A DNA stretch of 64,000 nt, from positions 1-64,000 of IMG/VR virus record IMGVR_UViG_3300047557_002769. The stretch is one strand, 5' to 3'. The stretch is from a virus. Positions 1 to 20,477 of the stretch are shown here, one piece after another. The notes beneath the pieces were generated by a model. The model saw only the letters and a list, made by a program, of their open reading frames with translations. It made no database searches and was not told the origin of the DNA. Position 1 is the stretch's first letter; each line of letters opens with the position of its first letter. A program made the translations under genes and the position numbers.

Positions 1-500
1 ACATCAAAAAGATCAATACCCCTGGTTGTAGAGGACATTGGTAAAACTTTTTCTACACCAACTACAGCATCGTTCAGGGAAATATAACGATTATCAAAAT
101 TACCTAACGTAATAGAAGATAGAGTAGCAGTTGTACCAGTCGTACCACCGGTAATTGTCTCGCCAGCGGTAAACGTACCACTAACGTTCTTGACATTCAT
201 TCTATTACTGCTAACGTTAGCAACTACAGACGCCGTTGCACCAGATGTTGACCCGGTAATTTTCTCGCCGTTTTGAAAGCTTGCTGCGTTGATACCGGTA
301 ATTTGAATTAATGATGCGGTAATCTTTTCTGAAAGATAAACCAGCTCTACCGCATCATAATGAAATTCGCGATAGGTCTGGAATGCTTCGTCAATACGAT
401 CTTCGATCTGATCCTCATCCACGTTAATTTCAAGTACGGGATGGCCTAGCTTGCGTAAGCAATAATCGATTAGTTCTTGTCTGGTAGATGGATTAGCCAT
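1..500 (-). CDS. gp13: Neck protein gp13-like, N-terminal part (runs off window)
   Basis: Manual translation from ATG at 500: MANPSTRQELIDYCLRKLGHPVLEINVDEDQIEDRIDEA..., the typical T4-like gp13 N-terminus. Not in the ORF track because it is truncated. Confidence 0.9.
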   Translation of the reverse strand, partial: MANPSTRQELIDYCLRKLGHPVLEINVDEDQIEDRIDEAFQTYREFHYDAVELVYLSEKITASLIQITGINAASFQNGEKITGSTSGATASVVANVSSNRMNVKNVSGTFTAGETITGGTTGTTATLSSITLGNFDNRYISLNDAVVGVEKVLPMSSTTRGIDLFD

Positions 501-517
501 AGGTATCCTTTTTTAGA

Positions 518-525
518 TATTTATC
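518..525 (-). promoter_or_regulatory. T4-type late promoter variant GATAAATA upstream of gp13
   Basis: One mismatch to TATAAATA, 17 nt upstream of the gp13 start. Confidence 0.5.
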
Positions 526-3379
526 AACCAATTCTTCTCCATAAAGTAATCGATGAGACATACTCAATTACTTCTCCGATAGCTATTGAGTTATAGTTTG
601 TAACTATATCGCTAGTATAAGAATCATTAAACACACCTTCCACCTGTGTATACTCTAAAGCACCATTATCAGTATAGGCTATTGGTCCAAGATAAGGTAT
701 AAATTCAGTACCTGTATATTGAACCCCGGAGTTTACATAATCTTCACTAAAAGAAGATGTATAGTTAGTTTGTGTTAAAAAAGCTTGATTATATCCAGCA
801 TAATCAGCTTCATAGATCGAAATATTAGCGAATACTTTATCATAATACCCTATATAAACTAGTTGGTCAGAATAACTTGTATTATATGTATTAGTATAAT
901 TGTTTATTGAATTATCAAAAATCACCGCATCGAGCGGTGATGTATCCAAACCGGTGTATGTAGTGTTATAATTAGATTCGGAATATAAATTCACACTAGA
1001 ATAGTCTGTGGATCCAATATAAGCGTCAATAGTGTAAGTTGCTGGTGATGTGTATTCTGTTGTATAGACTTCCGCACCGCCACTACCACCCAGAAAGACA
1101 GTTACATAACCTATAGTGTAATTAGTATCAGCTGTATATACGATCGTGTTAGATATAAAGAGAGAAGTATATTCGATTGGACCTGTGTAGTTGGTATCGT
1201 ATTGACCTATATAGGACGTGCTAGGCCCCACGTAACCATCTATAAATCCTGCAAAGTCAATATCACTGGTATAAACACTAGCTACTACCGAATAATTGAG
1301 ATCTCCTGTATAGTTAATTAGGTACCCGGGTATACCCTGATACAGCTCAGAATAACCTAGAAATGTAACATAAGAAATATCATAAGTTGAATCAAATGTA
1401 ACAAATGATTGATCACCCGGTGAAGTATAAAATGCAGTTTGATCGTAGATCGTCGTAATAATATTTGTATATGCTACGCCTCCTTCGCCAGTATACTCGA
1501 TAGTGTACCCTATATCAGGGTCGGTGTATTGTAATAGGGTAGTATAAGTTAAATTTGGACCGGTGTATAAGATAGGACCGGCAAAATCTCTTGATCCTAG
1601 GTAAGTTAAACTCTCAAACGCTCCACCCGTGTCTCTTGCGTATATCGCATTACCGGTGTAGTAACCACCTACAACACCAATATAAACATCTGTACCAGTG
1701 TAGTAAGCAGAAATAATATATTGAACAGACCCCGGTCCGACGAAAGGTACATCGCGATTATAGTTGGTTGTGCCTGTATAAATTGGGTTAACAACAGTAA
1801 ATGTTGCAAAAGTCGAAAAGACAGTATCCGGGTCAGTATATACTGTACTAAATGTATCAAAAGTTGCGTACTCTGGTTCAACAATATTTGTATAATATGC
1901 TCCGCTGTTGTATATACTTGCTGCGTCACCTGTATAGCTAGCTAATGTGTAACTATTAGTAAAGGTAGAGGTAAAATCTAATTCATTACCACCAATGTAT
2001 TCTTTCTCGCTTAAGAAAGTAAACTCACCTGTATACGGTATCTGATATGCCAAACTATCATACCCGAAGATATACGGCGTGGTGTAATAAATGTCGTCTA
2101 AGGTATAGCTAGACTCACCTACAAATATAGTCGAGTAATCAGTGCTATCTGCAATACCGGTATATAGATTTGAAGCTCCGGTATAAATACTGACATTTAA
2201 AAAGTTTATATACGATTCTAAATCATTTGTGTAATCTATGTCACCGATAAATGTAGTTGCATTTGTATATACAATAAAACTAGTATAATCTGTATCATAA
2301 AATCTAGTCCCCGTGTATGTATTAAGGGGGCCGAAATAAGTACCACCTGGTCCAAAATAGTTAGTTGTTGCAATTGGTACAGCATTATTTTCGTAAATTA
2401 CATTGTATAAACTAGTAGGGCTGTTAAAGAAAGTATCTAGTGTATAGTTTATTGGACCGGTATAAAAAATAGGACCAGTATACGTCTCATTTAGATATTC
2501 TTCACCGGTGTACGCAATGTCACCAGGTCCGGTGTAAACATTATCATAACCAAATGGCCCTGTGTAGGAGACTGCATCTTTTAAATAGTCGGCGATATAG
2601 TTAATAGAATCATATGTTAGTATATAACCATCCGGGGTTAAATAAATCGTATCGGTTGATCTTCTTAGATCATAAATTGTACCTCTCGCTTCCCACACGC
2701 CGTTCTCTGGAGCTGATTCCTGCAATACATAATAATTTTTACCTGATGAATTAATATAGTCTTCAACTATTTTTATAGTGTTGTCAATATCTGCAACACT
2801 AAAAACCTGTAACTCACTGCTTACTAATTTGCTTGGACTTATGTAGCTAGAAGTTCCGCTGTCTATCTTCTGCCATAGATGGTATGTTGACTGAACCTCT
2901 GTAAAATTATTAAAAGTATCCTGTATACTTCCTCTACTAACCCAGGTATCGCCATCCGAAGGAGCAGACTCACCGAGATAGTAAGAAGTTATTCCACCAG
3001 ATAAAACAACGCTTAAAATTTCAGCAGCTACGTTAGCGTGAGTATCTTTATTTTCTTGTAAAATAGTTGTATTACCAACTAGATTCAATCCAATAAAATA
3101 GGGAGGATCAGTAGCTACCTGCGTTGATTGTATTTGAGATAAAGTATAAACATTAGATACAATATCTACGTTTGATCCGCCCTCACCGGAAGCACGTGCA
3201 GTATCAGTAAAATTACCAATAACGCTACCTTGAGCGTTACCGAAAATAATAGTACCTGTGTAAGTACCACCGGCCATACGGCGTAATACTTCGCGGTAGA
3301 AGCTATCAAGCTCTGACGCAGATGCTTCTAAAAGCTCTACACCAGATAGGGTGCTGGTGCTATATACAATACTGACCAT
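524..3379 (-). CDS. Giant Tyr/Thr-rich putative virion appendage protein (paralogue A, 951 aa)
   Basis: About 240-aa N-terminal repeated domain, then ~700 aa of YT/YTG(P) motifs; ends ITLWRRIG; in the structural region. Confidence 0.7.
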   Translation of the reverse strand: MVSIVYSTSTLSGVELLEASASELDSFYREVLRRMAGGTYTGTIIFGNAQGSVIGNFTDTARASGEGGSNVDIVSNVYTLSQIQSTQVATDPPYFIGLNLVGNTTILQENKDTHANVAAEILSVVLSGGITSYYLGESAPSDGDTWVSRGSIQDTFNNFTEVQSTYHLWQKIDSGTSSYISPSKLVSSELQVFSVADIDNTIKIVEDYINSSGKNYYVLQESAPENGVWEARGTIYDLRRSTDTIYLTPDGYILTYDSINYIADYLKDAVSYTGPFGYDNVYTGPGDIAYTGEEYLNETYTGPIFYTGPINYTLDTFFNSPTSLYNVIYENNAVPIATTNYFGPGGTYFGPLNTYTGTRFYDTDYTSFIVYTNATTFIGDIDYTNDLESYINFLNVSIYTGASNLYTGIADSTDYSTIFVGESSYTLDDIYYTTPYIFGYDSLAYQIPYTGEFTFLSEKEYIGGNELDFTSTFTNSYTLASYTGDAASIYNSGAYYTNIVEPEYATFDTFSTVYTDPDTVFSTFATFTVVNPIYTGTTNYNRDVPFVGPGSVQYIISAYYTGTDVYIGVVGGYYTGNAIYARDTGGAFESLTYLGSRDFAGPILYTGPNLTYTTLLQYTDPDIGYTIEYTGEGGVAYTNIITTIYDQTAFYTSPGDQSFVTFDSTYDISYVTFLGYSELYQGIPGYLINYTGDLNYSVVASVYTSDIDFAGFIDGYVGPSTSYIGQYDTNYTGPIEYTSLFISNTIVYTADTNYTIGYVTVFLGGSGGAEVYTTEYTSPATYTIDAYIGSTDYSSVNLYSESNYNTTYTGLDTSPLDAVIFDNSINNYTNTYNTSYSDQLVYIGYYDKVFANISIYEADYAGYNQAFLTQTNYTSSFSEDYVNSGVQYTGTEFIPYLGPIAYTDNGALEYTQVEGVFNDSYTSDIVTNYNSIAIGEVIEYVSSITLWRRIG

Positions 3380-6264
3380 CAGTTACCCCAGACAACATTA
3401 CCTGATGCGTCTTTAATTATCAGCAATCTATTCGAACTATCATACAACCCTGCTGATCTCATAGAACCAGTGAATACAGCATTACTTGCATTAATGTTTG
3501 CAGAAATTAACACATTACCGACTACATGTAAATTTGCTAACGGTGTTGTTGTGTTTATACCGACTTCATGTGCTATAGAATCAACATGAAGTACGTTTGT
3601 ATCAACGTTAAGGTTTCCAGAGATAGTAATATTTGATACTGTTGTAGATGAAATAGATGCTGCTAGTTGAGCATTCGACACAGCCCCAGTTGCACCGCCA
3701 ACCGAAGTTACTCCAGCAGAGATTGAAGCGTTAGCAGCGGAAGTTATTCTACCTTGATTATCTATAACAATTACAGGTACACTTGTTGTACCACCATAGG
3801 TATTTGCAGTAACACCGGTAGGCTGTAACTGAGAGGCTATAATATTACCAGATATATTGCTATTTGCAACTGTTATTGTTGCGTTTGCGGCCGATGTTAT
3901 TCTGCCCTGCTGATCAATAACAACTACAGGGGCAACGCTTGAACCACCATAAGTACTTGCTGTAACACCAGTAGGCTGAATCTGACTAGCAATAATGTTA
4001 CCAGTAATATTACTATTTGCTACCGTACTGGTAACGTTAGATGCCGAAGTAATTCTACCCTGGTGATCAACAGTAAATACTGCCTGAACTGCAGCGGCAC
4101 CATACGTTGTGGGTGTAACACCAGTAGGTTGTAGTTGACTAGCTAAAATATTACCAGTGATGTTTGAGTTAGAAACTGTTGTTGTAACATTAGATGCAGA
4201 TGTAATTCTTCCGAATGTATCTACGGAAATTACTGCTTGAAGTGCTGCAGCACCATAGGTACCTGCACTTACACCAGATGTAGCTAAAGCAATTGTGGGG
4301 GTAGCCCCTTCATTAGCTAAGTTTGTTAAGCTAATACCAGAACCCTGGACTAGGTTAGCAACATAAGAACCAGAGGTTTCTGTACCAAGAACAACATCTC
4401 TACCAGTGTTGTGGATTATAAATGAGGCAGCGCCGGTGTTAACTGACCATCTATCATTTGTCTCATCCCAAAATAACTCTACATTAGCTGATGATCCTCT
4501 ATTAACAATAATACCTGCATCCTGGGTAGGTGCACCGGTATGATTGGAATTTAAAACAATCTCATTGTCCGCTAAATCAATAGTCTCAGTGTTAATTATT
4601 GTCTGTGTACCGGAAACAATTAAGTTACCTTGCACAACAACGTCTCGTGCAACCAGGTTCGCAGTAAGTGAAAGAGCAGTACCTGAGGCAGTTCCAATAT
4701 TAGGTGTTGTTAGAGTAGGAGAGCTAAGTGTTGGAGAGGTGGAAAAGACTAGGTTACCTGACCCGGTCTCATCACTAATTACACCAGCAAGCTCTGCAGA
4801 AGTAGTAGCAGCAAAGGCTGATAGCTTAATACCAGATAATGCAACGTTAGCTGCACTAGTAATTCTACCCTGATGATCAACAGCTACAGCAGGAATATTA
4901 ACAGCACTTCCATACGTTGCAGGTGTAACACCTGTGGGTTGTAGCTGATATGCAATAATATTGCCGGTAATATTTGAGTTAGCAACTACAACTGTTACAT
5001 TAGATGCCGCGGTAATGTGACCTGTGCTATCAACGGTAAATACCGGTACAACTGATTGACCACCATACGTTGAAGCAGCAACACCAGAGTTAAGGTGTGA
5101 AAGAGTTAAAGAGGTGCCTGATTTAACAGCGCCTATTGGAGCAGTATTTGAAACAGTGTTAACAAAACCTGCACCTGTAATGTTAGCTAAAACCCTAGCG
5201 TTGGTAAAATAAAGATTAGTACCTTCAGTGACGTTAGATGTATTAAGCACACCAGAAGATGTAATTCCAGCTGCTAGTTGAACGTTAGATACAACACCAG
5301 CTGCACCACCTACTGATATAACCTTTGCATCAGTATACGTTGTTGATATCGATGTACCCTGCCACGTACCCGATTCAACTGTCCCAAGACGTGAAAATGT
5401 GAATGTGCCTGCTGTACCTGATACATTACCAGTAGTAACGTTGCCGGTCGCGGTAAATGGACCGGTATAGGTTAAAGCGCCGGTACCAGCTCTACCTAAA
5501 GTAGCTGCATCACCGGTGCCAAAATTTATATAAGCATTGGCGGGGTCTTGAATTCCTTTTATTCGTATAGCATTAGCTATATTATAATCACCTACCCAAG
5601 CATCATCACCTATACGGTAATTCTCACCATTGCCGTTGTTGTTTGAGATGAATCTATCTGCTGTTACGTTTGCAGTGAATGTCGCATTTGTAAGAGTTTG
5701 ACTGGTCACTGTAGCAGCAACTAGTTGTGCGTTTGATACGGCACCTGAATTAACACCGGCTACCGATGTAATAGTACCTGAACCTGCTCCAATTAAATTT
5801 GTGCTTACACCGGCGCCTGCTGTTGTCAGGTCAACATATACCCCTCTTGCATCACCGCCGCCTTCAAAAATACGCAGTTTATTTTGATAAATGTCGATTG
5901 CAACATTACCGGCAAGAGTCGTGTTGGTAGATGGTTTACCAAGATTTATTTGGCCACCTTCATCACCCCCAATGGCACCTAAGCTTAATTCTCCTCCGGC
6001 AAAAATTGCCCCAGAAAAACTAGCATTATCTAATTGCTGAGATGATATTGCTGTTTTTACTCTAGCATTAGAGAAATAAAGATTTGTACCTTCGGTGACG
6101 TTAGAGGTCGTACCCGCACCAATAACAATGACAGTACCGGAACCATCCTTTGTGTAAATGACTTTATCAGCTAAGTTTACAACCGGTTCGCCAACTAGAA
6201 CATTAGCAGAATCCGGTGTCTTTCCGGGTACGGAAGATCTTTTTAATTGAATATCAGCTGCCAT
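3379..6264 (-). CDS. Tail fibre-like protein (961 aa)
   Basis: N-terminal IQLKRS...GEP motif, EGTNLYF motifs, six GVxxxTYG...VDxxGRITSA repeats, G/T/S/N-rich. Confidence 0.8.
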   Translation of the reverse strand: MAADIQLKRSSVPGKTPDSANVLVGEPVVNLADKVIYTKDGSGTVIVIGAGTTSNVTEGTNLYFSNARVKTAISSQQLDNASFSGAIFAGGELSLGAIGGDEGGQINLGKPSTNTTLAGNVAIDIYQNKLRIFEGGGDARGVYVDLTTAGAGVSTNLIGAGSGTITSVAGVNSGAVSNAQLVAATVTSQTLTNATFTANVTADRFISNNNGNGENYRIGDDAWVGDYNIANAIRIKGIQDPANAYINFGTGDAATLGRAGTGALTYTGPFTATGNVTTGNVSGTAGTFTFSRLGTVESGTWQGTSISTTYTDAKVISVGGAAGVVSNVQLAAGITSSGVLNTSNVTEGTNLYFTNARVLANITGAGFVNTVSNTAPIGAVKSGTSLTLSHLNSGVAASTYGGQSVVPVFTVDSTGHITAASNVTVVVANSNITGNIIAYQLQPTGVTPATYGSAVNIPAVAVDHQGRITSAANVALSGIKLSAFAATTSAELAGVISDETGSGNLVFSTSPTLSSPTLTTPNIGTASGTALSLTANLVARDVVVQGNLIVSGTQTIINTETIDLADNEIVLNSNHTGAPTQDAGIIVNRGSSANVELFWDETNDRWSVNTGAASFIIHNTGRDVVLGTETSGSYVANLVQGSGISLTNLANEGATPTIALATSGVSAGTYGAAALQAVISVDTFGRITSASNVTTTVSNSNITGNILASQLQPTGVTPTTYGAAAVQAVFTVDHQGRITSASNVTSTVANSNITGNIIASQIQPTGVTASTYGGSSVAPVVVIDQQGRITSAANATITVANSNISGNIIASQLQPTGVTANTYGGTTSVPVIVIDNQGRITSAANASISAGVTSVGGATGAVSNAQLAASISSTTVSNITISGNLNVDTNVLHVDSIAHEVGINTTTPLANLHVVGNVLISANINASNAVFTGSMRSAGLYDSSNRLLIIKDASGNVVWGN
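3720..4275 (-). repeat. Tandem ~153-bp (51-aa) repeats within the tail fibre
   Basis: GVTxxTYG...DxQGRITSAxN...SNITGNIxASQxQPT units at ~153-bp spacing; boundaries approximate. Confidence 0.85.
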
Positions 6265-6293
6265 ATGGCTCCAATTAAACGGTTATATAACCG

Positions 6294-6482
6294 TTAGTTA
6301 GTAAATTCAGATTTCTTTTCTTTTTTATTTAGCTTGTTTAAATCATTTATTAGCTTTTGATTTTCTTCTAAAGCAAGCTGGAGCTGAGTCTCAAGTATTA
6401 ATACTCTTGACTGCAGCTCGTTTAACTTGCTGTTACTTCTTTCTAAAACTAACTTATAAAATGTAGCTTGATCAATTTCCAT
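6294..6482 (-). CDS. Small coiled-coil protein between fibre genes
   Basis: 62 aa with a heptad pattern; tightly packed between neighbours. Confidence 0.75.
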   Translation of the reverse strand: MEIDQATFYKLVLERSNSKLNELQSRVLILETQLQLALEENQKLINDLNKLNKKEKKSEFTN

Positions 6483-6489
6483 TTATAAC

Positions 6490-9261
6490 TCAATATGTTC
6501 CGCCGTCAACTTTACCATTGAAGTAATCAGCGTAAACGTTGCCTGTAATACCAACACCGCCAGCTACTCTTAACGCACCAGTTGCATTTGATACTGCAGC
6601 TGTATGTGTTGTATTCATGGTGATAACTTTAGTGCTACCGTCATTGAATAATGTAAAGTAGGCTTCGTCAGCCTGCATAGTAATCTTCTTACCGCTCTCT
6701 AGGTAAATTTTAGAATAAGAAGTAGGATAGTTACCAGCAGCAAGGGATAGAGCACCGGATGCATCGCCAAGACCACCTCTTACCTCTAGAATACTAGATG
6801 ACAGAGGTACAATTTGATTTTTTTCGTTACCGAAACTTAAAGCTGTAGATACGTTAGCGTTTGAAGCAACTAAATCCGCGACCAGAGTAGCTATTTCGTA
6901 CCCAGTGCCTGCAATGTTAATTGTGGAAGTTAAATTATCCTGGCCTTGTAATCCCTGGAATAATCTAAACTTACCATCAGAAGCATCTCGGAATAGACCA
7001 GCGTGCTCATGGGTACCACCGTCATTATTATAACTACCGTAGAAACCAATATCGATAGTATCCGCTAATATGTTGTTGTTAGCAAGCTGAATTAGTGAGT
7101 CTTCAACTACTAAGTTTTCAACCGGCAGAGCAACAACGTTACCGGTAACATATAGGTTACCAGAAACGGTAAGATCCCTAGCAATTGTAACGTCGTCTGG
7201 AAGCCCGATCGTAATATTACCTGTGCTTCCGCTTACGTTTATTTCGTTTACGGTACCGGTAACCGATGTAACACCATTGTTAGTTACAGTTACATTACCG
7301 TTGTTGGTATCAAGACTTATACCATGCCCGCCAGATAGTAATCTGGTAACACCGGTATTAGTAACTGTTACTGAACCGGTAGAAGAACTTACAGTTAAAC
7401 CGTACCCACCTGAGGCAAGAGCTGTTACACCGTCGTTATTAATGGTAAATGTATTACCTGACAGTGAGGTAGAAACGCCTGTACCACCTTTAACGGCTAG
7501 TGTTTCTGTTGCCAGGTTAAGGCTATCAGTACCAGTATCACCAACTAAGTTAACTAAGATATCTACGTTTGAAGCCGCAGATAATCTTCCATAAGAATCA
7601 ACTGTAAACGTTGGTACTTTGCCTGCTGTACCATATGATCCAGCACTAATACCTGTTGTATTAAGCGTGATGGAGATAGTAGTATTGCTGCCCTCAGACG
7701 TCAAAGACGTAGCAATACCATCCTGGCCATCGATGATGAGTTGATCACCGGTGTTAAATGTGTCTGTATTATTATCTCCACCTTTAATTGTAAAGGAAGT
7801 AGATATTGTTGTATTAGATGCAGATGTTATTCTACCGAACTGATCTACAGTAAATACAGGAATTGATGTTGTGCCGCCGTATGTTGTAGCTGTGACCCCG
7901 CTAGGTAGTAAGGTAATATTACCTGTAGCAGTATCGTATGCAATTGCATTACCACTTGTTAGCGAAGCACGCGCTCTTGCATTTGTGAAATACAGATTAT
8001 TTACTTCAACAACGTTGGCGGTTGTTAAGTGATTAGATGTGTACGCAGTTCTCTGTACAGAGTTATCAGAGAAAGTAATCTTACCATTAGTAGCATCTGT
8101 AAGATTTAATCCACCGAGAGTATCGATATCACCGCCGAACTTACCACCGGACTGTACAACTAACCAACCTGCATAGCTAGAATTTAAACCACCGTTATTA
8201 GTTGGTAAGGCTGTACCGACAAATAAACTACCTTCAATTCCAACGCTCATGTAATTTGAGCCGTTAACACCGAACGTGAATAGCGAATTATTAGCGGTTG
8301 GTGATGTTGCGTAGAAACCTGCTTTTAAATCACCAGTTTGAGCTACCCCGCTTTGCCCGCTCCAGTAGTAGGTACCGGTCCCCCCGTCAAGATTTAAATC
8401 AGAATTGCCAATATTAAACCCATACAGGGTAGGCATAGTATCCAGAACAACTACTGCACCACTTCCTGAATAACCAGTAATCTGATTACCTTGTATAGAA
8501 AACTTATTATTTGCCCCTACCGAGACATCATAAGTTTTATTCGTAAAAGTTGTAATGCTATCAGCGGTTACAAATACTGCAGTAGCTGAATTGGCTGCAG
8601 ATGTAATACGACCTTGAGCATCTACTGTAAATACAGGTATCGTACCTGATCCACCGTACGTATTAGCTGCTACTCCAGTGTTTGTCAGTGCAACAGTAGG
8701 AGTCGCAGTCTCACCGCCCTGGTTAGAAACTTCAATACCAGTACCAGCCAAGACGTTAGCAACATAGTCACCAGTAGTATCTGTACCCAGTGCAACAGAA
8801 TTAACGTTCGCTGTTGTAGTGATTGTTACATCAGATGTACCGTCGAAGCTTACTGTACCAGTTACATCACCTGCCAGAGTGATGTTGCGTGGTGTTGTTA
8901 AGGCATTTGCAAAGTTAGCAATATTAGCTGACTGAGCTTGACCAGTAACTGTACCGACAATGTTTCCAACCAGCGTGTTAGCAGTAATTACGTTAGCACT
9001 AAAATTTCCCGATGCGTCTCTTTGAACAAGAGCATTTGCTGTGTTCGCACTACTTGCCCCGTCAACCTTATCGGTGTAATATTTACCACCAACTATGTGT
9101 ACAACTTCATTATTACTTGAATCAACTGACTCAATATACAGCCGTGCCCCTACACCGTCATTAGCTTTATCTTGAGAGTAAGCTAATTCACCTACTACCA
9201 GATCAGATGTAGATGGTGCGGTTACATTAGCAGATCTTTTAATCTGAATAATCGTTGACAT
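6490..9261 (-). CDS. Tail fibre-like protein (923 aa)
   Basis: IQIKRS...GELAYS N-terminus, three TYG...GRIT-type repeats, C-terminal VDGGTY. Confidence 0.8.
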   Translation of the reverse strand: MSTIIQIKRSANVTAPSTSDLVVGELAYSQDKANDGVGARLYIESVDSSNNEVVHIVGGKYYTDKVDGASSANTANALVQRDASGNFSANVITANTLVGNIVGTVTGQAQSANIANFANALTTPRNITLAGDVTGTVSFDGTSDVTITTTANVNSVALGTDTTGDYVANVLAGTGIEVSNQGGETATPTVALTNTGVAANTYGGSGTIPVFTVDAQGRITSAANSATAVFVTADSITTFTNKTYDVSVGANNKFSIQGNQITGYSGSGAVVVLDTMPTLYGFNIGNSDLNLDGGTGTYYWSGQSGVAQTGDLKAGFYATSPTANNSLFTFGVNGSNYMSVGIEGSLFVGTALPTNNGGLNSSYAGWLVVQSGGKFGGDIDTLGGLNLTDATNGKITFSDNSVQRTAYTSNHLTTANVVEVNNLYFTNARARASLTSGNAIAYDTATGNITLLPSGVTATTYGGTTSIPVFTVDQFGRITSASNTTISTSFTIKGGDNNTDTFNTGDQLIIDGQDGIATSLTSEGSNTTISITLNTTGISAGSYGTAGKVPTFTVDSYGRLSAASNVDILVNLVGDTGTDSLNLATETLAVKGGTGVSTSLSGNTFTINNDGVTALASGGYGLTVSSSTGSVTVTNTGVTRLLSGGHGISLDTNNGNVTVTNNGVTSVTGTVNEINVSGSTGNITIGLPDDVTIARDLTVSGNLYVTGNVVALPVENLVVEDSLIQLANNNILADTIDIGFYGSYNNDGGTHEHAGLFRDASDGKFRLFQGLQGQDNLTSTINIAGTGYEIATLVADLVASNANVSTALSFGNEKNQIVPLSSSILEVRGGLGDASGALSLAAGNYPTSYSKIYLESGKKITMQADEAYFTLFNDGSTKVITMNTTHTAAVSNATGALRVAGGVGITGNVYADYFNGKVDGGTY

Positions 9262-9281
9262 GCTTGGCCCTTATTAATATT

Positions 9282-9521
9282 TTAATATGTTCCACCGTCA
9301 ACTGAAGCTATTGCGCCTGCGTCGACTGGTTGAGAAATCCATAGGTTAGTCTCTGAATCATATACCAGGGTATATCCATCTTGTAAGTTTGATGTATCAA
9401 CATTACTAAGACCCTGAATAGTCAGAGCACCGGCTTTCTTCACCACGACACTACCTACTGTCTGCGAACCCTGGCTAACAGTGATATTATTAGGGTTAGG
9501 TGTGCGAACAGTAACAGCCAT
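9282..9521 (-). CDS. Small virion/fibre-associated protein
   Basis: LSNVD...DGYTLVYD...W motif; ends VDGGTY like the neighbouring fibre. Confidence 0.7.
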   Translation of the reverse strand: MAVTVRTPNPNNITVSQGSQTVGSVVVKKAGALTIQGLSNVDTSNLQDGYTLVYDSETNLWISQPVDAGAIASVDGGTY

Positions 9522-9856
9522 TATCTTGTTGCCTCAGGATAAATTGTTACAATACCCTCAACAATTCTCTCAACCTTACCGGTTGCTGTCTCTACTAATT
9601 CGAGATCATACACGTAGCGCCCTTGTTTAAGAGCTGAAGTTTGTGTATTAGTAAGAGATAATGTAATTTCACCTTCAGAGGGATTTAAAATACTAACAGT
9701 AAAAGCGGTATTGCTGTTAGTGTAATACGATTTTCTTAGCTGTGATCTAGCAGTATAACCGGTTAAATTTCTAGCTGTACCGGTATCGTCCGTAACCGAA
9801 ACAGTTACAGTATACGTTGTGCCTTGATCTATAAAAAGGTTAGAAACGACAGCCAT
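9521..9856 (-). CDS. Conserved T4-like virion structural protein
   Basis: DQGTTY...GEITLSLT...GRYVYDLE...RIVEG pattern seen in fibre regions of T4-like phages. Confidence 0.7.
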   Translation of the reverse strand: MAVVSNLFIDQGTTYTVTVSVTDDTGTARNLTGYTARSQLRKSYYTNSNTAFTVSILNPSEGEITLSLTNTQTSALKQGRYVYDLELVETATGKVERIVEGIVTIYPEATR

Positions 9857-9877
9857 ATGGATCCTATTATGTTATCT

Positions 9878-9885
9878 TATTTATA
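9878..9885 (-). promoter_or_regulatory. T4-type late promoter TATAAATA
   Basis: Exact consensus upstream of the fibre genes. Confidence 0.75.
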
Positions 9886-10467
9886 TTATTCCGGTTTGAG
9901 ACCAAATTGTGTTTTTAAGAATTTTCTTTCGGTCTCAGAGAGATAAATCCACACAACAATAGCTTCACGCGCGCCAGATTTTATTTCTGTGGCGGTATGC
10001 TTTAAGAATGAAGGAAAAACGATGTAAGAACCGGCTTCTTTCTTAAGCTTATGAATGTTCTCACCAACTCTTACTAACAATTCACCGCCTTCGTAATCTT
10101 GTTCGTCAGATATATTGATAGAGAAGGTTAACCCTCTAGTTCTACCCCCCTCGCGATAGATATCATCTTGATGCCATTTGAAAAAACCACCAGGCTCATA
10201 TCTAACGTACTGTATTTCAGCAACATCAGTTACATTTAAATTCAAGCCTACATATTCAATAGCAATAGCGGATTGTAGGTAATTAAATATATAAGGTGTT
10301 TCTTTTGGTTTAGGGAAGTAAACAAAAGAATCTCTTACACTCAAGTTAACAGCCTGCTTACCAGTTATACTAGACACGAACTTTTTATCACGAAAAGCGT
10401 CAACTTCGCGTCTTATTCTTGCAAGCTCTGTGGGGGTAATCTTACCGTGTCTGATGTACTCGTACAT
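9886..10467 (-). CDS. 2OG-Fe(II) oxygenase (prolyl-hydroxylase/PKHD-like)
   Basis: YEPGGFFKWHQD (HxD), YEGGEL, FPSFLKH, distal R. Confidence 0.9.
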   Translation of the reverse strand: MYEYIRHGKITPTELARIRREVDAFRDKKFVSSITGKQAVNLSVRDSFVYFPKPKETPYIFNYLQSAIAIEYVGLNLNVTDVAEIQYVRYEPGGFFKWHQDDIYREGGRTRGLTFSINISDEQDYEGGELLVRVGENIHKLKKEAGSYIVFPSFLKHTATEIKSGAREAIVVWIYLSETERKFLKTQFGLKPE

Positions 10468-10481
10468 TTTTTCTAATATTT

Positions 10482-11162
10482 ATGAAGCTAACTTTAGGTA
10501 CGACTTATTATAACAACCCGGATTATCTGGAAAAGTTCATTAAGCGAAACCTTGATTATGTTGATGAGCTTATTATTGTTGACGACGGTTCTAAGCTACA
10601 CATAAGAGATTATGTAAAACCAACGAATAAGATTAGACTATTTCGTATTAAAGATGACCTGGGCTTTAATTCTCATGGCTGTAGAAATCTTATAATGAAG
10701 CAATCATCAAATGATTTTGTAATTCTTCTTGATATAGACAGAGAGTTTATCTTTGTAAAAGATGCTTATAAAGCTATCAGAGAAGCAAAGCTTAAAGACA
10801 ATGTACGCTATAGATTCATGGCTCATTCTAGTATGAATGAAACACATGGATCAGTTAATGACTACCTTATACATCGCAAGCATTTTTTCAGCGCGGGCGG
10901 TTATGATGAAGAATTAATTGGTGAACGCTGGGGAGATAGAGAATACTTCAAGCAGCTGCTACATTTCGGTAAAGAAAAATACCTCTATGGTGTTGATATT
11001 ATGCTAACAAGAAGGCCTTCCAGTTCCCTGAAAGGCCTCGCCACCTCACCCAAAGATAAAAAAATAAGTAAAGAGAATCAAGAACTCATAGATCGCAGAA
11101 TTAAAACACCTGAGCCTAATAAACCAATCTTAACATTTGAATGGGAAGAGATTACTTCCTAA
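10482..11162 (+). CDS. Glycosyltransferase, GT2/GT-A fold
   Basis: IIVDDGS, CRN, LLDID (DxD), GGYDEE...WGDREY. Confidence 0.88.
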   Translation: MKLTLGTTYYNNPDYLEKFIKRNLDYVDELIIVDDGSKLHIRDYVKPTNKIRLFRIKDDLGFNSHGCRNLIMKQSSNDFVILLDIDREFIFVKDAYKAIREAKLKDNVRYRFMAHSSMNETHGSVNDYLIHRKHFFSAGGYDEELIGERWGDREYFKQLLHFGKEKYLYGVDIMLTRRPSSSLKGLATSPKDKKISKENQELIDRRIKTPEPNKPILTFEWEEITS

Positions 11163-11739
11163 CTACAATCATAAACAGATCAATATTGACTGTCTGTCCT
11201 GATTTTTCTTTAGAATCGTTTTCAACTAGATTTAGATCTACCGCTACGTTTTTTGTCTTACTAGGGTAGACAGTTACGTTGGTATAACCTTTAGCTTTTA
11301 TAGCTTCAACTATCTCATCGCATTTGTAAAGAACATCCTCTATAACATAGACTTTTTTAAACTTACCGTGAAATACATTAAAGGTTTTTATTTGATCTTT
11401 ATAAAAATGTGACCCATCGTCAATAATCACATCTACACTAGGAAAATTGCCGGTAACTGACTGAACAGTTGAATCACCATTAACAATTCGGTTAGCTTTA
11501 GCATAGTTAATGTATTCTTTATCCTGGCTCTTGGGATTATTGTCTAAGCCATAGAGCTCAATTCCAGGGAACAAAGCTCTCCATGCTGCAAGAGATTTAC
11601 CCTGCTTAATGCCTATCTCTAATAAGGACTTTGTTTTTTCTGTAAAAACATCCTTATAATATAGATGATAGTCATGGGACTTAGCTTTATCAGTACCCAT
11701 AGCATTAAAAACCGTTAAATATTTTTCTGCATCATACAT
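11152..11739 (-). CDS. Class I SAM-dependent methyltransferase
   Basis: TDK...H.Y, LLEIGIKQGKSL, IIDDGSH, YVIED. Confidence 0.85.
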   Translation of the reverse strand: MYDAEKYLTVFNAMGTDKAKSHDYHLYYKDVFTEKTKSLLEIGIKQGKSLAAWRALFPGIELYGLDNNPKSQDKEYINYAKANRIVNGDSTVQSVTGNFPSVDVIIDDGSHFYKDQIKTFNVFHGKFKKVYVIEDVLYKCDEIVEAIKAKGYTNVTVYPSKTKNVAVDLNLVENDSKEKSGQTVNIDLFMIVVRK

Positions 11740-12742
11740 CTTTGTAATCCTCCAGTGTGAATTTAGTACCCTTCATCTTATTAATTTGAACCAGGTCATT
11801 ATTCTTCCATACCAGTACTTCGTTATCTTCGTATAAAAAATCACAATTTTTGCAGAACGGTACTTCGTCAAATCGATTCTCTGCATGCATCTGTCTTAAC
11901 CAGCGATAGCGTTCACCGTTCCACACCTCTTCGATTGATTTATCAGCAATAGAACCTAGATCAGCTTCATCGTCGCGACCTAGAGTCTGGCAGCAAGGTG
12001 CAATAGAAAGCTTACCACCAGTAGAAGAACCAGCTCTAATGGTTAGATCAGGAGAGAAAGGCCTACCGCATGTTCGTTTTTGGCCTCTTCGCTTATAGTC
12101 AGGGTCATACACACCTGACCAGTTATGCATTTTCCAGATTTCTGCATAGGTGCCTACAGGTTCGATAAAGTTCTTTTTATATTGCTCTACTTCAAAATCT
12201 ACTTTATCGTTATCTAAAATAAGGTGATAAGATGCAACAATACAATCACTTCTTGTCTCTTCAATATACGTTTTCATTTCGATAGCATTTTTCTTAATTT
12301 GATTAAAGCTATCTTGATTCATCCACTTAATATATTGAAGCTGATTGTATCCAATAACAGAAAAACGCGCTAATGCTAGACCGGCATCAACGCATTTCTT
12401 CATAAAATCACCTTTTAACTTAAATCCATTTGTATAGATAAAAGGCTTGGCGTTATATTTTCTAACGATTCTAATATAGTCAGGTAGATTGCTGTTAAGA
12501 GTAGGCTCACCCGAACCTTCAAGATTAACAACATTTAAACCGTAATGCGAAGCTTCTTCTACAATACGTTCAAAATCTACTAAAGAAATCTTTTTAAGCC
12601 AGTTCTTACCTCTACCGTCAGGCTCATTCGATTGAGGGCACATCTGACATGAGTAATTACACCCACCGTTAACCTCAATAACCGCTCTATCAACCGATAG
12701 GGGTATTGTAAAGTCTGTGTTCATTAGCGATCGCATGCTCAT
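11732..12742 (-). CDS. Radical SAM protein with SPASM/Twitch-type domain
   Basis: CNYSCQMC (CxxxCxxC), GSGEP, C-terminal C...CC...LG...W...CKNC. Confidence 0.92.
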   Translation of the reverse strand: MSMRSLMNTDFTIPLSVDRAVIEVNGGCNYSCQMCPQSNEPDGRGKNWLKKISLVDFERIVEEASHYGLNVVNLEGSGEPTLNSNLPDYIRIVRKYNAKPFIYTNGFKLKGDFMKKCVDAGLALARFSVIGYNQLQYIKWMNQDSFNQIKKNAIEMKTYIEETRSDCIVASYHLILDNDKVDFEVEQYKKNFIEPVGTYAEIWKMHNWSGVYDPDYKRRGQKRTCGRPFSPDLTIRAGSSTGGKLSIAPCCQTLGRDDEADLGSIADKSIEEVWNGERYRWLRQMHAENRFDEVPFCKNCDFLYEDNEVLVWKNNDLVQINKMKGTKFTLEDYKDV

Positions 12743-14919: not shown

Positions 14920-15432
14920 TTACGATTTGCTTTGTTGTGCTTTTTGCTGTGCTTCTTTGGCGTCTTGAATATCATCGAGCTCGTCAAATACATCAATGAA
15001 AGACATATTCTTTTCAGACATGTAATTCATCATTTGATGATGAATAATAATGTTTAGCATCAGCATATCAGGTGCACGTCTGATAGCTGTTTTAATTTTA
15101 TCTTCTGCATTAGCAATGAAAGGCATTTCGAATGCTTTCATTTTCGCATCGAAAAGAATTTTAAGCTTGTTATTCTCTTCTGCAGCAAGACGCTTTTTAC
15201 GATCAAATTCTTGTTGTCTACGACGACGCGTCTCCAGCTCATTACGCTCGCGACGCATCTTTTCAACATCGAACTCATCAAGGATACGGTCCCACATTGC
15301 ATTGACACCGCGGGCCATTTTCGGAGGCACGGTAAGTTCTGCAACGGATGTTACACCGCTATCATTAATAAGTTCAAAACGAACTTTAGTTTTTTCAACA
15401 TCAACGAAATGGGGGTTTTTAATAATACTCAT
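14920..15432 (-). CDS. Hypothetical protein, possible fibre assembly chaperone
   Basis: Likely start MSIIKNPHF, overlapping the upstream stop (ATGA); charged helical C-terminal half. Confidence 0.6.
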   Translation of the reverse strand: MSIIKNPHFVDVEKTKVRFELINDSGVTSVAELTVPPKMARGVNAMWDRILDEFDVEKMRRERNELETRRRRQQEFDRKKRLAAEENNKLKILFDAKMKAFEMPFIANAEDKIKTAIRRAPDMLMLNIIIHHQMMNYMSEKNMSFIDVFDELDDIQDAKEAQQKAQQSKS

Positions 15433-18400
15433 GCGATTCTTCTCCATAGAATGTATTCAGTTGCATCAATCACATCATTATTTATAACGGCTTCATTAGC
15501 TGCGACTTCAGATGTATATGTAGGTACAATATCCACGTTACCGGTATAATTAACAAGTAGGTTATATGCTTCTGAAACAGTATAGGATTCATTAAAGGTT
15601 GTAGTGTTGATGTAGTCTATTTCTGAGCCAGTGTAGCTATCTGCAACAAAATCTACAGTTGCGGTATATTCAATATCCCCGGTATAGATAACACCAGTTG
15701 GACCTACATACTCTACTGATGTGGTATATGTGTTTGTGTATTCTGGATCAGCAACTGTGTAAATAACTTGACCGGAATATTCAAGGGTTGTATCGTACTT
15801 ATCTTGAGTGTATTGTAAGGCTGTATAGCTCGTCACATAACTCACATCAGTATATAACGTAGGTTCTGGTATACTTAAAAATACCGAAAGATTATAACCG
15901 GCATAATCCGCCAGTAACGTGGTGTAAAAAGCGTTATAGTCAGTTGAATAATTTAACTCAGTTGAGGTATAGTAAACAACAAGACCGGTATATGGTATAA
16001 AAGTTGTATCTGATGTATATAATATACCCAATGTGTATTCGTTTGTAAGAGTGTACTGAATAGGCCCTATAAAAAATACTTCACCAGAGTATAATAGCTC
16101 TGCACCTGCAAATGTATCGAACCCAGGCCCGCTATAATCAGTTGCGTCTGGTACGCTATCATTCGTATAGTTTATAACAAGCGAGTAATTAATCGCAACA
16201 GTGTATATCGGTTCTTCGTTATATAATGTATTTGTAAATCCAAGAATGCGATCGTAAACTGCATTAAACGTACCGTCCCCTGTATAGTAAACGGCACCAG
16301 GTCCAGTATAGTACAACGGCGTAAAGCTATCGTAAGCGGTAGGTGCTGATCCTGTGTAGCTAGTTAAAGGGGTTGCATTCACATAACTTCTTAAGTCACC
16401 GAAAACATCATAACTTGTAGGCTTAATAATAGTACCCGTATAGAAATCAGCACTTATGGTGTATGATGAGGTAGGACCGGTGTACGTTATCAATCCAGTA
16501 TATACTACATCTATAGCATATAAATCTTCTCTTGTATATTCAACAGTTCCAGTGCCAATATAAAGATTTTTGTCTACGTTTAATGTAGAGTATTGAGGGT
16601 TACCATAGCCTACGTCTCTAACGTAGCCCGTCGACGTATCGTATAATAAATCAATAGTATAAGGTACTTCAATTGTATAGATATCTAAAGCGTATTCATC
16701 CCCGGTGTAGTCTACGGTTGTGTAAATATTTTCATATTGAGTAGTATATGTTCTATTAAAATCTTGAGCATAAAACTCGGGTTCTGACAAATATTCATCA
16801 TCTTGAGGACCAGCGAATCCTAAAGTATAAGTAGGTGTTGAAGCAAAGTTCACACTCTCGTACATTTCTGGTGCAGTATACCCAGGCAGACCTGAAAAAA
16901 TGTTTGTATACTGTTCACTGTACAAAGCAGCACTAAAACTAGTTAGCGGACCTGCAGGTGCTGGTATTGCAGGACCTTCGTATGATAATATATATTCTTG
17001 ATTAAACGTATTAATATACTCACTTAAAAAATAAACTATTTCTTTAATATATTGCGCACCGGTAGTATACGTGGCATTATAGTACTGAAGTTGCCCTCCA
17101 TATAATAATTCATTTGCTGTGTATTGTTCAGAGTAAAAAATATCCACACTTGGACCTGTATACTCACTGCTAAGTAGGTATTCACCTAAAATACCAGTAT
17201 AATAGGGATTTATTTGTGTATACACACCCCCGTCTTCAGTATTATATAACCGGGTAAACGTACCTACGTACCCGTCTTGGTATATAGTTACATAATACTC
17301 TTCTGTACCTTCTCCCATGTAAGTTGCTGGAGAAGGTACACTGTTTAAGTACTGGCCAGGTCCAACATACGAGATTGAATAAGCATTAGAAAATAAAGTT
17401 TCTGTTATAAAACTTATGTAAGATAGCGGGGATGTATATGTATTTACAGCAGCATTATAAATGTCGTCGTTGCGTTCATAGTACTCCGAAGGTGTAACCA
17501 TTTCTTGTACATAAACGGTATCACCACCAGTATATGTCAAGGGCTGCAAAAATATAGCGTACGCTACACCAACTTCTTCCGTATAGGTAAGTGTAGGCCC
17601 GGTGTATAAAGTATCATACACCGGTTCTAAGGTGTATGGGGTGCTTTCAAGATATTCTGTACTTAGTGTATAAGTAAGAACTGTAGAATAGGATAGTTGA
17701 TAATTTTCAATAACTGAGCCAAGGTATAACGATGTAGATGCGCCAACATAATCTATACCTACTGTATAAGGTGTAGCGGTCTCATAACTTAAAGTGTATT
17801 GAGTTTCAAGTCCAGAATATTCTTCTATGGAACTATAAACTTCACTGTCTTCAATCGAGTAGACATTATCTGCTACATCAGTGTAAGAACCGGGGCCTGT
17901 GTAAAGTGAAGCCTCTGGATCCCTTACATATGTTTCAGTTGAATAAATTGCTAGGTTGTACGAGTTAGGATCTTCATTAAAAATAAGCGTACTTGAGAAT
18001 TCACCGACAAGATAATCTTTTTCAGCAGAAAGATATGCGTTGTCTAGACTGTATGTAGTGGTGTAGTTGGTAGTAGTAGAAAATGCAGACACGGAGGCAT
18101 AGCTGCTTATACCAGAATTATATATATTTTCATCTGAGTAGGAAATACCACCAGTATAAGACGATGTTGAGTTATCTTGATAACTGGTAGAAGCTCCTAC
18201 GTATACCGTAGCTAATGTGTATAGCTCACCTAGATACAGCGGTAAGGAATCTTCGTAGGAAAGCTCTACATCTCCTTCATAGAAATTTCTTGTATAGCTT
18301 TCTAATGTATATGTAGCAGGGGGATTGGTATATGAACCGGGTCCAGAGTATGTTAATGGATCTGCGGTATATGAAGCATAGCTTACCCCTGCAGCTGTGT

Positions 18401-19706: not shown

Positions 19707-20258
19707 TTAACCCCCCCAGATCACAACATTAGATTCATCTAGTATGCGCAGCACTCTACCGGTGCTATCTTGCAAACTGCTTGTTTTAAGAGTTGTGGAA
19801 TTTAATGTACCGTTAACTATTATGTTTGCCAGATTACTTGCAAATTTATCAAATGTAGCAATGCTTGTACCAGCAATATTAGCAACTATTGTACCGTTCG
19901 TTAATGCAGTTAGTGTAGTTGTGCCGTTAACAATGCGTGTTGAATCTACAGAAATACCAGATAGTAGCGAACCGTTACCTAGAAAATAGTTACCAGATAC
20001 ATTACCAGATACAGTAATGTTACCACCTGCTGTAATCTCAACCTGGTTAGTAGCTCTTCTATAAACTTCATTAAGCGCTAAGACGATACTATCTGTTTCA
20101 GTTGTAAGAAGCAGTTCAGCATCACCTACTAGATTGTTAAGTGTTGCAATACTAGATATATTATTAGCTGATTCGCTGTTTAAACTTGTGAAGTTATCAT
20201 CAACTTCCTGATTTGTCAGCGGTCTTGCTACTACGTTCCGTAGGGTTAAACTTGCCAT
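19707..20258 (-). CDS. Virion structural/adaptor protein
   Basis: LTLR...PLTNQEVDDNF N-terminus; C-terminal LQDSTGRVLRILDESNVVIWGG resembles the end of the 961-aa fibre. Confidence 0.7.
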   Translation of the reverse strand: MASLTLRNVVARPLTNQEVDDNFTSLNSESANNISSIATLNNLVGDAELLLTTETDSIVLALNEVYRRATNQVEITAGGNITVSGNVSGNYFLGNGSLLSGISVDSTRIVNGTTTLTALTNGTIVANIAGTSIATFDKFASNLANIIVNGTLNSTTLKTSSLQDSTGRVLRILDESNVVIWGG

Positions 20259-20261
20259 TTT

Positions 20262-20477
20262 TTATTTCGTTAATAACTGTTTAAGCATCTGTTTAATCTC
20301 TGATACATCATTTTCTATTCTATCGATTCTACTACCATGAGTTAGTAGCTCAGTCATCATGCGCTTTTTGCGACGGTGCTCAAGCAGTGCTTGTTGATCA
20401 ACATTAAGCACTGCTTTTGACTCCATATCACGAACTAGATCTTTATGTTCTTGAACTTTAGCTAATATCTTAGTCAT
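20262..20477 (-). CDS. Small hypothetical protein
   Basis: LVRD...AVLN, C-terminal coiled coil; directly downstream of the DUF4815-like gene. Confidence 0.75.
   Translation of the reverse strand: MTKILAKVQEHKDLVRDMESKAVLNVDQQALLEHRRKKRMMTELLTHGSRIDRIENDVSEIKQMLKQLLTK

Follow-up and report, generated by a model that had tools for sequence, protein, structure and literature searches.

Introduction

The gp38 adhesins of T2- and S16-like phages are encoded directly downstream of the fibre gene and carry a hypervariable region rich in glycine and aromatic residues. The MABP, MACPF C-terminal and perforin-2 P2 domains have the beta-prism fold and a threefold pseudo-symmetry within the domain; the P2 domain in addition bears a protruding beta-hairpin. 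In T4 gp37, the D10 collar is built from residues 811-881 and 1010-1026, which flank the D11 needle, and the chain goes out and returns (PMC6957217). Here we describe P0001, a 951-amino acid protein encoded at 524-3379 (-), with its stop codon at 524-526, in a 64,000-nucleotide stretch of viral DNA (the window; positions 1 to 64,000 of IMG/VR record IMGVR_UViG_3300047557_002769), together with a paralogue, P0002, encoded in the same window. The source record is complete, at 163,234 bp, and has terminal repeats. A sequence-only reading of P0001 had proposed that its Tyr-rich region is a giant insertion in one hairpin loop of a repeated domain. Structure models and family comparison support this architecture and place both proteins in a large, previously unannotated family with a confidently predicted base fold.

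Results

The N-terminal ~245 amino acids of P0001, which we refer to as the base domain, contain three homologous repeats of ~80-90 amino acids, in line with the three repeats of ~90 amino acids that the sequence-only reading had described in both paralogues. Repeats 2 and 3 are significantly similar in both proteins by pairwise alignment (z 8-13; 0/300 shuffles reach the score). Repeat 1 gave no significant score by single-sequence pairwise alignment against shuffles (z<2) and was recovered through family profiles only, for which hhalign returned E values of 1.4e-13 (repeat 1 versus repeat 2), 1.3e-14 (repeat 1 versus repeat 3) and 3.7e-25 (repeat 2 versus repeat 3). In the AlphaFold2 (AF2) model of P0001, the order of elements is identical in all three repeats: strand, strand, helix, strand, long hairpin strand and closing strand. 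Repeat 1 (residues 1-90, 3110-3379 (-), from AF2 and hhalign) comprises, with E for strand and H for helix, E5-10, E13-18, H21-37, E44-46, E52-62 and E73-82. Repeat 2 (residues 91-176, 2852-3109 (-), from pairwise alignment, AF2 and hhalign) comprises E96-101, E104-109, H112-126, E133-136, E145-155 and E162-173; it ends in the closing strand YHLWQKI and has a short loop, as had been anticipated for both paralogues. The N-terminal part of repeat 3 (residues 177-245, 2645-2851 (-), from the same three sources) comprises E182-186, E189-192, H195-212, E217-220 and E229-240 and has no closing strand of its own. The sixth element of repeat 3 in this model is instead a strand at the C terminus of the protein, residues 938-949 (nt 533-568 (-)).

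Three approaches, AF2, a split-chain prediction and profile alignment, assign this strand to repeat 3. In the full-length AF2 model, built from a 111-row alignment, the base domain has a predicted local distance difference test (pLDDT) score above 90 and strand 938-949 a score of ~98, whereas residues 274-933 fall below 50 and lack secondary structure. In the split-chain test, ESMFold2 was given residues 1-262 of P0001 paired with residues 912-951, alongside 3 controls. The pair scored 0.90 and the best of the 3 controls 0.00; 58/80 solved complexes and 2/110 mismatched pairs reach the former value, counts that are approximate here because our own alignment was supplied. Across three split-chain runs the contact agreement was at least 77% and the partner pLDDT at least 57, and residues 935-951 were placed against residues 212-224 and 227-245 of repeat 3 and also against residues 132-135 and 55-60. 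No complex resembling the split-chain pair has been solved, and the pass is therefore not recall of a known structure. Finally, when the Tyr-rich tract is excised, the hhalign alignment of repeats 2 and 3 runs on through the C terminus, with EYTLWRRTD against TVSLWLRTA, and its E value is 3.2e-28 with the C terminus as against 3.7e-25 without it.

The smallest members of the family display the same arrangement with almost no insertion. The AF2 model of P0093, a minimal member of 287 amino acids (71-row alignment), has a pLDDT of 95.8 and a predicted template modelling score of 0.90, and consists of three units, each with the order strand-strand-helix-strand-strand-strand. Its repeat 3 ends in a continuous two-stranded hairpin made of E241-257, a turn at A258-G259 and E260-285, and the final residues are the LWLRTA strand. 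Models and sequence comparison thus agree in predicting that repeat 3 is closed by the extreme C terminus (...TLWRRIG). It follows that residues ~245 to ~925 of P0001 would be an insertion in the last hairpin of this repeat and, since the insertion lies between two segments of the base domain, the chain would leave the base and have to return to it. On these boundaries, the Tyr-rich, acidic tract occupies residues 246-925 (605-2644 (-); pLDDT<50), and the conserved return segment, assigned by AF2, split-chain prediction and hhalign, occupies residues 926-951 (527-604 (-)), ending TLWRRIG. The sequence-only reading had placed the strands ITLWRRIG and YILWRRIA at the extreme C termini of P0001 and P0002, where both are found, and had proposed that the strand completes repeat 3.

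To place these proteins in a wider context, we built a profile of repeats 2-3 from both paralogues, leaving out repeat 1 because MAFFT had misaligned it between the two proteins, and searched it against 1.84 billion representatives. The search returned 286 relatives with E<=1e-3, of which 209 reach E<=1e-10; each of them represents a cluster at 50% identity. Family members span 226-2484 amino acids, and the base domain lies nearly always at residues ~80-250. The motif L-[WY]-x-[RK]-x-x forms the exact C-terminal end in 134/151 top relatives (L in 134/134, W in 128, R in 133), a pattern that the LWRRIG end of P0001 fits; the other 17/151 are mostly truncated, within repeat 3 or the tract. Whole-protein hmmalign put the C terminus into the trailing insert; instead, the base domain was divided into four element hidden Markov models (HMMs) and the gaps between elements were measured in 121 members. 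In this scheme about 20 rows cross-match repeats 2 and 3, an artefact that shifts loop 1 by about +100 and loop 2 by about -81, and the E4 element HMM has no match in 11 long or divergent members.

These measurements show that no residues follow the terminal strand in 120/121 members and one residue does in the remaining member. The repeat-2 loop is of constant length and the repeat-1 loop usually has 9-12 amino acids, whereas loop 3, in the last hairpin of repeat 3, ranges from 3 to 856 amino acids (median 169) and is longer still in P0002, P0004 and P0043; in P0001 it has 681. Variation in this one loop therefore accounts for nearly all of the family's nine-fold length range. The homologues with variable or nearly absent inserts that one would look for under the insertion model thus exist, and they retain the terminal strand. 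Length variants inside one 90% cluster differed solely in their start codon and were uninformative on arm growth.

The hairpin of repeat 1 that matches the one in repeat 3 can carry similar sequence. P0004 has an additional Tyr-rich insert of ~470-520 amino acids there (residues ~60-590), and P0129 (~60-165) and P0146 have smaller Tyr/Phe-rich inserts in the same hairpin; two of the three pseudo-symmetric hairpins can accordingly bear such appendages. Some members also have inserts of other, unrelated kinds elsewhere in the base domain, either in further repeat-1 loops or between repeats 1 and 2: a Gly-rich insert of ~330 amino acids in P0072 (residues ~60-390), and inserts of ~100-230 amino acids in P0024 (~45-280), P0108 (~45-115), and P0102, P0143 and P0144 (~100-225).

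The Tyr-rich tract is not random in composition, with 14.6-14.9% Tyr, 7 Lys and Arg against 75 Asp and Glu in 685 amino acids, and no Trp, His, Cys or Met; the His count is 0 in both the 685-amino acid tract of P0001 and the 1115-amino acid tract of P0002. Y-x-Y is absent from the two tracts (14.6 occurrences expected in P0001 and 24.7 in P0002), whereas Y-T occurs 45 times in the P0001 tract against 14.9 expected and Y-x-G 31 times against 9.3. Tyr spacing is irregular, with modes of 4 and 6 and a mean of 6.9. Self-BLAST found no internal repeats or modules in the tracts, and the Tyr tract is not a tandem repeat at the DNA level.

In the P0093 model the turn of the hairpin sits on the motif aromatic-aromatic-[AGS]-G, which recurs in the family. 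It lies at 0.45-0.56 of the tract in 8/9 short members matched by a regular expression. Among short members with a single match, the motif starts at residue 5/11, 5/12, 14/28, 18/36, 22/44 (twice), 31/62, 38/68 and 35/70 of the tract. A position-specific scoring matrix was built from nine turn sites and applied, at a score of at least 6, to members not used in building it. The best site lay at 0.476-0.526 of the tract in 9/17 of these unseen members (binomial p 1e-5 versus the uniform expectation), and all nine fall among the 13 with tracts of 79-176 amino acids. Several members also have repeats arranged about the turn: P0134 has three TSPNYTT[DN]F units on either side, P0151 about 5.5 SSGYDRG.F units on either side, P0129 equal repeat counts in both arms, and P0017 two different 8-mers, switching near the middle from TTPSNFVG (about ten units) to LTPANYDG (about eleven). 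A turn at the midpoint implies that in tracts of up to ~176 amino acids the two arms lengthen together, and equal arms about a conserved turn are expected of an out-and-back ribbon but not of a one-way solenoid. Antiparallel pairing, which the sequence-only reading had suggested looking for, is predicted with high confidence in P0093 and is supported in longer members, for tracts of up to ~176 amino acids, by these midpoint turns.

Searches of annotated and structural databases returned little. Pfam and PHROG contain no family that matches P0001, P0002 or ten short relatives (Pfam was empty even at E<=1), and neither NCBIfam nor a sequence search of the PDB gave a match. No match was obtained with tblastn against GenBank phages (50,697 records) for P0001, its base domain or P0093, with megablast of window positions 1-12000, or in a pattern scan of viral contigs with the two-paralogue alignment; a word-indexed homologue search with residues 1-260 returned the query alone. 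Two candidate assignments found no support in profile searches. The gp38 adhesin family had no Pfam or PHROG match to P0001, P0002 or the ten short relatives. A Rhs/YD-repeat shell protein had no Pfam match at E<=1, and its repeat would call for Tyr spacing of about 20 amino acids, not the 4-8 seen here.

Foldseek against the PDB and BFVD likewise found no match at E<=1e-3. An exhaustive structural aligner returned the same four leading entries for the P0093 and P0001 models, namely the MABP domain (3tow), the Plu-MACPF C-terminal domain (2qp2), Mp2Ba1 (8b6v) and the perforin-2 P2 domain (6sb1). The Z scores, all below the tool's clear-match level, were 7.4 (root-mean-square deviation 3.8, 115 residues aligned), 7.3, 6.6 and 5.8 for P0093, and 6.2 (3.7, 119 aligned), 5.9, 5.5 and 4.8 for P0001. 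These beta-prism matches stand well above the unrelated rows, and the aligned range reaches the last residue, the C-terminal strand included. Since the scores lie below the clear-match level, we call the base beta-prism-like and claim no fold membership.

P0002 (1425 amino acids, 15429-19706 (-)) emerged as the second protein with an LWRRI ending in a six-frame search of the window, and its N-terminal ~240 amino acids align with those of P0001 at 25% identity (E 4e-8). Its base domain (residues 1-285, nt 18852-19706 (-)) includes a Tyr-rich mini-insert of ~60 amino acids in the repeat-1 loop (residues ~60-120, window ~19347-19526 (-)); the Tyr tract spans residues 286-1400 and is followed by the return strand ending YILWRRIA.

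The gene order of the window is that of a T4-like tail module, with a gp5-like hub and lysozyme, a gp6-like wedge (phrog_219 at E 3e-166) and other wedge proteins. The wedge genes are followed by a 2001-amino acid giant protein, then by ~20 kb of fibre-like genes and enzymes, and then by a gp13-like neck gene (3-500). By gp6, the nearest cultured phages, at 36-39% identity, are Methylophilales phage Melnitz and Pelagibacter phages HTVC008M and Mosig (37.5% for HTVC008M and up to 39% for Melnitz phages); no family member was found in HTVC008M, which is among these closest cultured relatives.

Gene context was read at eleven sites: both family genes of the window, and loci L004-L009 and L011-L013. 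At 11/11 a fibre-like gene lies immediately upstream, abutting or overlapping the family gene (gap -1 to 16 nucleotides). The start ATG of P0001 overlaps by 1 nucleotide (TGATG) the stop of a 961-amino acid fibre-like gene (3379-6264 (-)), a candidate docking partner ending ...SNRLLIIKDASGNVVWGN, and other upstream partners have this end motif in common. The fibre-like gene abutting P0002 encodes 183 amino acids (19707-20258 (-)) and ends ...TGRVLRILDESNVVIWGG. The upstream partners range from 80 to 961 amino acids, and a clade-specific, hairpin-like C-terminal motif is present in 9/10 sequenced partners: D.S.R.L.I[KR]D.SG..VWG in six and [FL].[IV][YF][NS].SG..L.P in three, with neither in one. 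Motif type and the clade of the family member encoded downstream (LWRRIA-type or LWLRTA-type) go together. Besides the two in the window, the partners with shared end motifs are L006:9453-10001, L011:9759-10001, L013:2288-2647 and L005:2-202, and L004:6386-7027, L007:8539-9999 and L012:8341-9264.

Two slots recur for family genes. The P0002-type slot comes after a DUF4815/VrlC giant protein, a small protein and then a fibre-like protein (directly or a few genes later), and the P0001-type slot lies directly before gp13-gp14-gp15 and is also that of the 2145-amino acid P0043 in L013. By position, the 2001-amino acid protein of the window (20470-26475 (-)) corresponds to the VrlC/DUF4815 giant baseplate protein, and the syntenic genes of L006, L008, L011 and L012 have DUF4815 matches. 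Work on metagenomic pelagimyophages gave the name host recognition cluster to the stretch from VrlC to the neck genes, which was noted to hold fibres, glycosyltransferases and radical S-adenosylmethionine (SAM) cassettes (PMC7029224). In the matching region of the window, P0002 lies at the VrlC edge and P0001 at the neck edge. Genes for radical SAM/SPASM proteins, methyltransferases, GT2 glycosyltransferases and 2-oxoglutarate (2OG)-Fe(II) oxygenases are found near family members in four of the contexts that have enough flanking sequence (window 9886-12742, L004:12495-15899, L006:14903-19101 and L008:14851-16023), with four radical SAM genes in a row in L004; these enzymes could modify the Tyr-rich proteins. 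In five contexts, a small protein of 137-186 amino acids with a K/R/E-rich coiled-coil segment is encoded directly downstream of the P0002-type gene (window 14920-15447 (-), L004:7901-8461, L006:12208-12711, L008:10905-11318 and L012:10219-10644). This small protein, which matches no known family, may be an assembly chaperone.

Discussion

Altogether our results identify the P0001 family as tail-module proteins of T4-like aquatic myoviruses, marine and freshwater, and lead us to propose a model for their architecture. The three tandem repeats would form one compact base domain that resembles a beta-prism, closed by the C-terminal strand, and everything between the two parts of repeat 3 would be carried as a loop. 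In the smallest members the insertion is predicted to be no more than a beta-hairpin of two strands, with aromatic-aromatic-[AGS]-G at its turn. In tracts of up to ~176 amino acids, arms built from Y-x-G-x units would grow in step, and the same kind of tract could also extend from the matching hairpin of repeat 1. The Tyr and Gly of Y-x-G-x would lie on the same face of the strand, and the Tyr ring could lie over the Gly. We infer that the 680-amino acid tract of P0001 is a longer, more irregular, beta-rich form of this out-and-back appendage. Gene position suggests a role for each part: the fibre-like protein encoded directly upstream would offer its C-terminal hairpin motif as a docking site for the base, and the Tyr-rich loop, distal and variable in length, would contact the host. 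As a whole, this account of a family with a three-repeat base, a C-terminal closing strand, a giant loop insertion and a role as an appendage is one that we hold with considerable confidence.

Several observations weigh against it. Support for the placement of the C-terminal strand comes throughout from prediction or comparison, the models of the base domain share an alignment source, and the similarity to beta-prism folds is middling (Z 7.4 and 6.2). Other points concern the hairpin. One of the short members matched by regular expression is an outlier, with the turn motif at residue 31 of 43, and 4/13 of the medium-length test members have it off-centre. One of these four, P0078, has two tip-like motifs in its 144-amino acid tract, at about 0.32 and 0.69, which would allow more than one hairpin. 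The turn-motif scan found no central site in any tract longer than ~290 amino acids, P0001 included; the sole FLGGSGG-like site of P0001 lies at 0.76 of its tract, and AF2 modelled that tract at pLDDT 30-46 with no secondary structure. The central inference of the sequence-only reading is supported, and its three proposed checks all turned out favourably: the C-terminal strand packs on repeat 3 in the models, homologues with variable or nearly absent inserts exist, and antiparallel pairing is predicted in P0093. For P0001 itself the evidence reaches as far as the closed-loop topology.

These points bear most directly on the shape of the long tracts. It is quite possible, if short of probable, that the topology is as we describe and the P0001 tract nevertheless forms several hairpins, a compact and irregular beta-rich mass or a flexible Tyr-rich brush. 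The off-centre turn motifs of all long tracts, the two tips of P0078 and the failure of AF2 to give a confident structure are what such a tract would lead one to expect, as are the irregular Tyr spacing and the lack of internal repeats. However, about 48% of the tract is Y, T, I, V or F, a beta-prone, aromatic composition unlike that of typical disordered regions, it retains the Y-x-G signature of the short hairpin members, and the family forms a continuous length series that starts at a modelled hairpin. Another picture is a trimer in which three out-and-back hairpins intertwine into a six-stranded needle like T4 gp37 D11, with the base domains as a collar. We consider this rather unlikely. 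T4 gp37, with the same split-collar topology, is a trimer (PMC6957217), the P0001 gene is located among fibre genes, and a lone two-stranded ribbon with arms of tens of residues would probably not be stable. Yet the base is already pseudo-threefold within one chain, searches by sequence and by fold did not match it to the collars of gp37 and gp12, and the tract lacks His, which makes iron sites of the gp37 type impossible. The boldest reading, and one that we offer as a speculation with little better than slim prospects, is that the family is a new kind of phage appendage, in which one chain makes a self-closing, two-armed Tyr/Gly "zipper" ribbon with both ends anchored in the pseudo-threefold base. 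Its length would be set by Y-x-G-x units added to both arms, and the radical SAM/SPASM, 2OG-oxygenase and glycosyltransferase enzymes encoded nearby may stiffen or decorate it. If true, the ribbon would reach up to roughly 100 nm in P0001 when fully extended (3.3 A per residue).

A different kind of alternative denies the closure of the base. The terminal L-W-x-R-x-x could be a separate signal outside the base domain, for example a docking peptide for another virion protein or a recognition tag for a chaperone. The motif is short and terminal, like many docking motifs, and a candidate chaperone, the small K/R-rich coiled-coil protein, is encoded just downstream of P0002-type genes. On the other hand, alignment pairs the C-terminal strand with the strand that closes repeat 2, the models show a closing strand at the matching place in repeat 1, two different predictors put the strand on repeat 3 with controls at 0.00, and in P0093 the terminal strand is the end of a continuous hairpin. 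A separate signal is accordingly very improbable, and we favor a model in which the C-terminal strand closes repeat 3 and holds the Tyr-rich tract as a loop.

By this base-plus-loop architecture, proteins of 287 and 2484 amino acids would be the same protein, and members could be annotated by a simple rule: three repeats, a Tyr-rich tract of any length and a terminal LWxRxx. The natural length series of the family is a possible model for the growth of beta-hairpin appendages. Family members are encoded in the host-recognition region of T4-like phages that are abundant in marine and fresh waters but uncultured. If the tract is the receptor-binding part, the family could help in studying host range in relatives of the phages that infect SAR11-like bacteria.

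How do these proteins compare with known systems? The predicted base differs from the MABP, MACPF and P2 beta-prisms in its low identity to them (8-12%) and in the extra helix present in each repeat. The gp38 adhesins offer a parallel in gene order and composition: the P0001 gene likewise lies directly downstream of a fibre-like gene, the Gly- and aromatic-rich variable region is likely host-facing, and a P0001-family protein could conceivably cap the tip of a trimeric fibre as a single chain. The predicted fold, however, is different from that of gp38 and the variable part is far larger. The sequence-only reading had set the looped chain apart from trimeric tail fibres, a contrast that overlooks the D10 collar of T4 gp37 and its inserted D11 needle (PMC6957217). 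Sequence searches of Pfam, PHROG and the PDB gave no link between the family and the collars of gp37 and gp12, none of the fold matches is a collar, and the His-x-His iron sites of the gp37 needle are absent from the 685- and 1115-amino acid tracts. The gp37 insert has about 130 amino acids, a fixed length and seven His-bound iron ions in an obligate trimer. In contrast, the insert of the P0001 family varies from 3 to over 1,000 amino acids, is based on Tyr and Gly without His, and would be carried by a three-repeat domain within one chain. What the two share is topology rather than homology: an elongated insert in a small base domain to which two separate parts of the chain contribute, encoded in the tail-fibre region of a T4-like phage. 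An elongated element in a split base domain is therefore not a wholly new principle and, by analogy, T4 gp37 D10/D11 appears to be the closest topological precedent for P0001.

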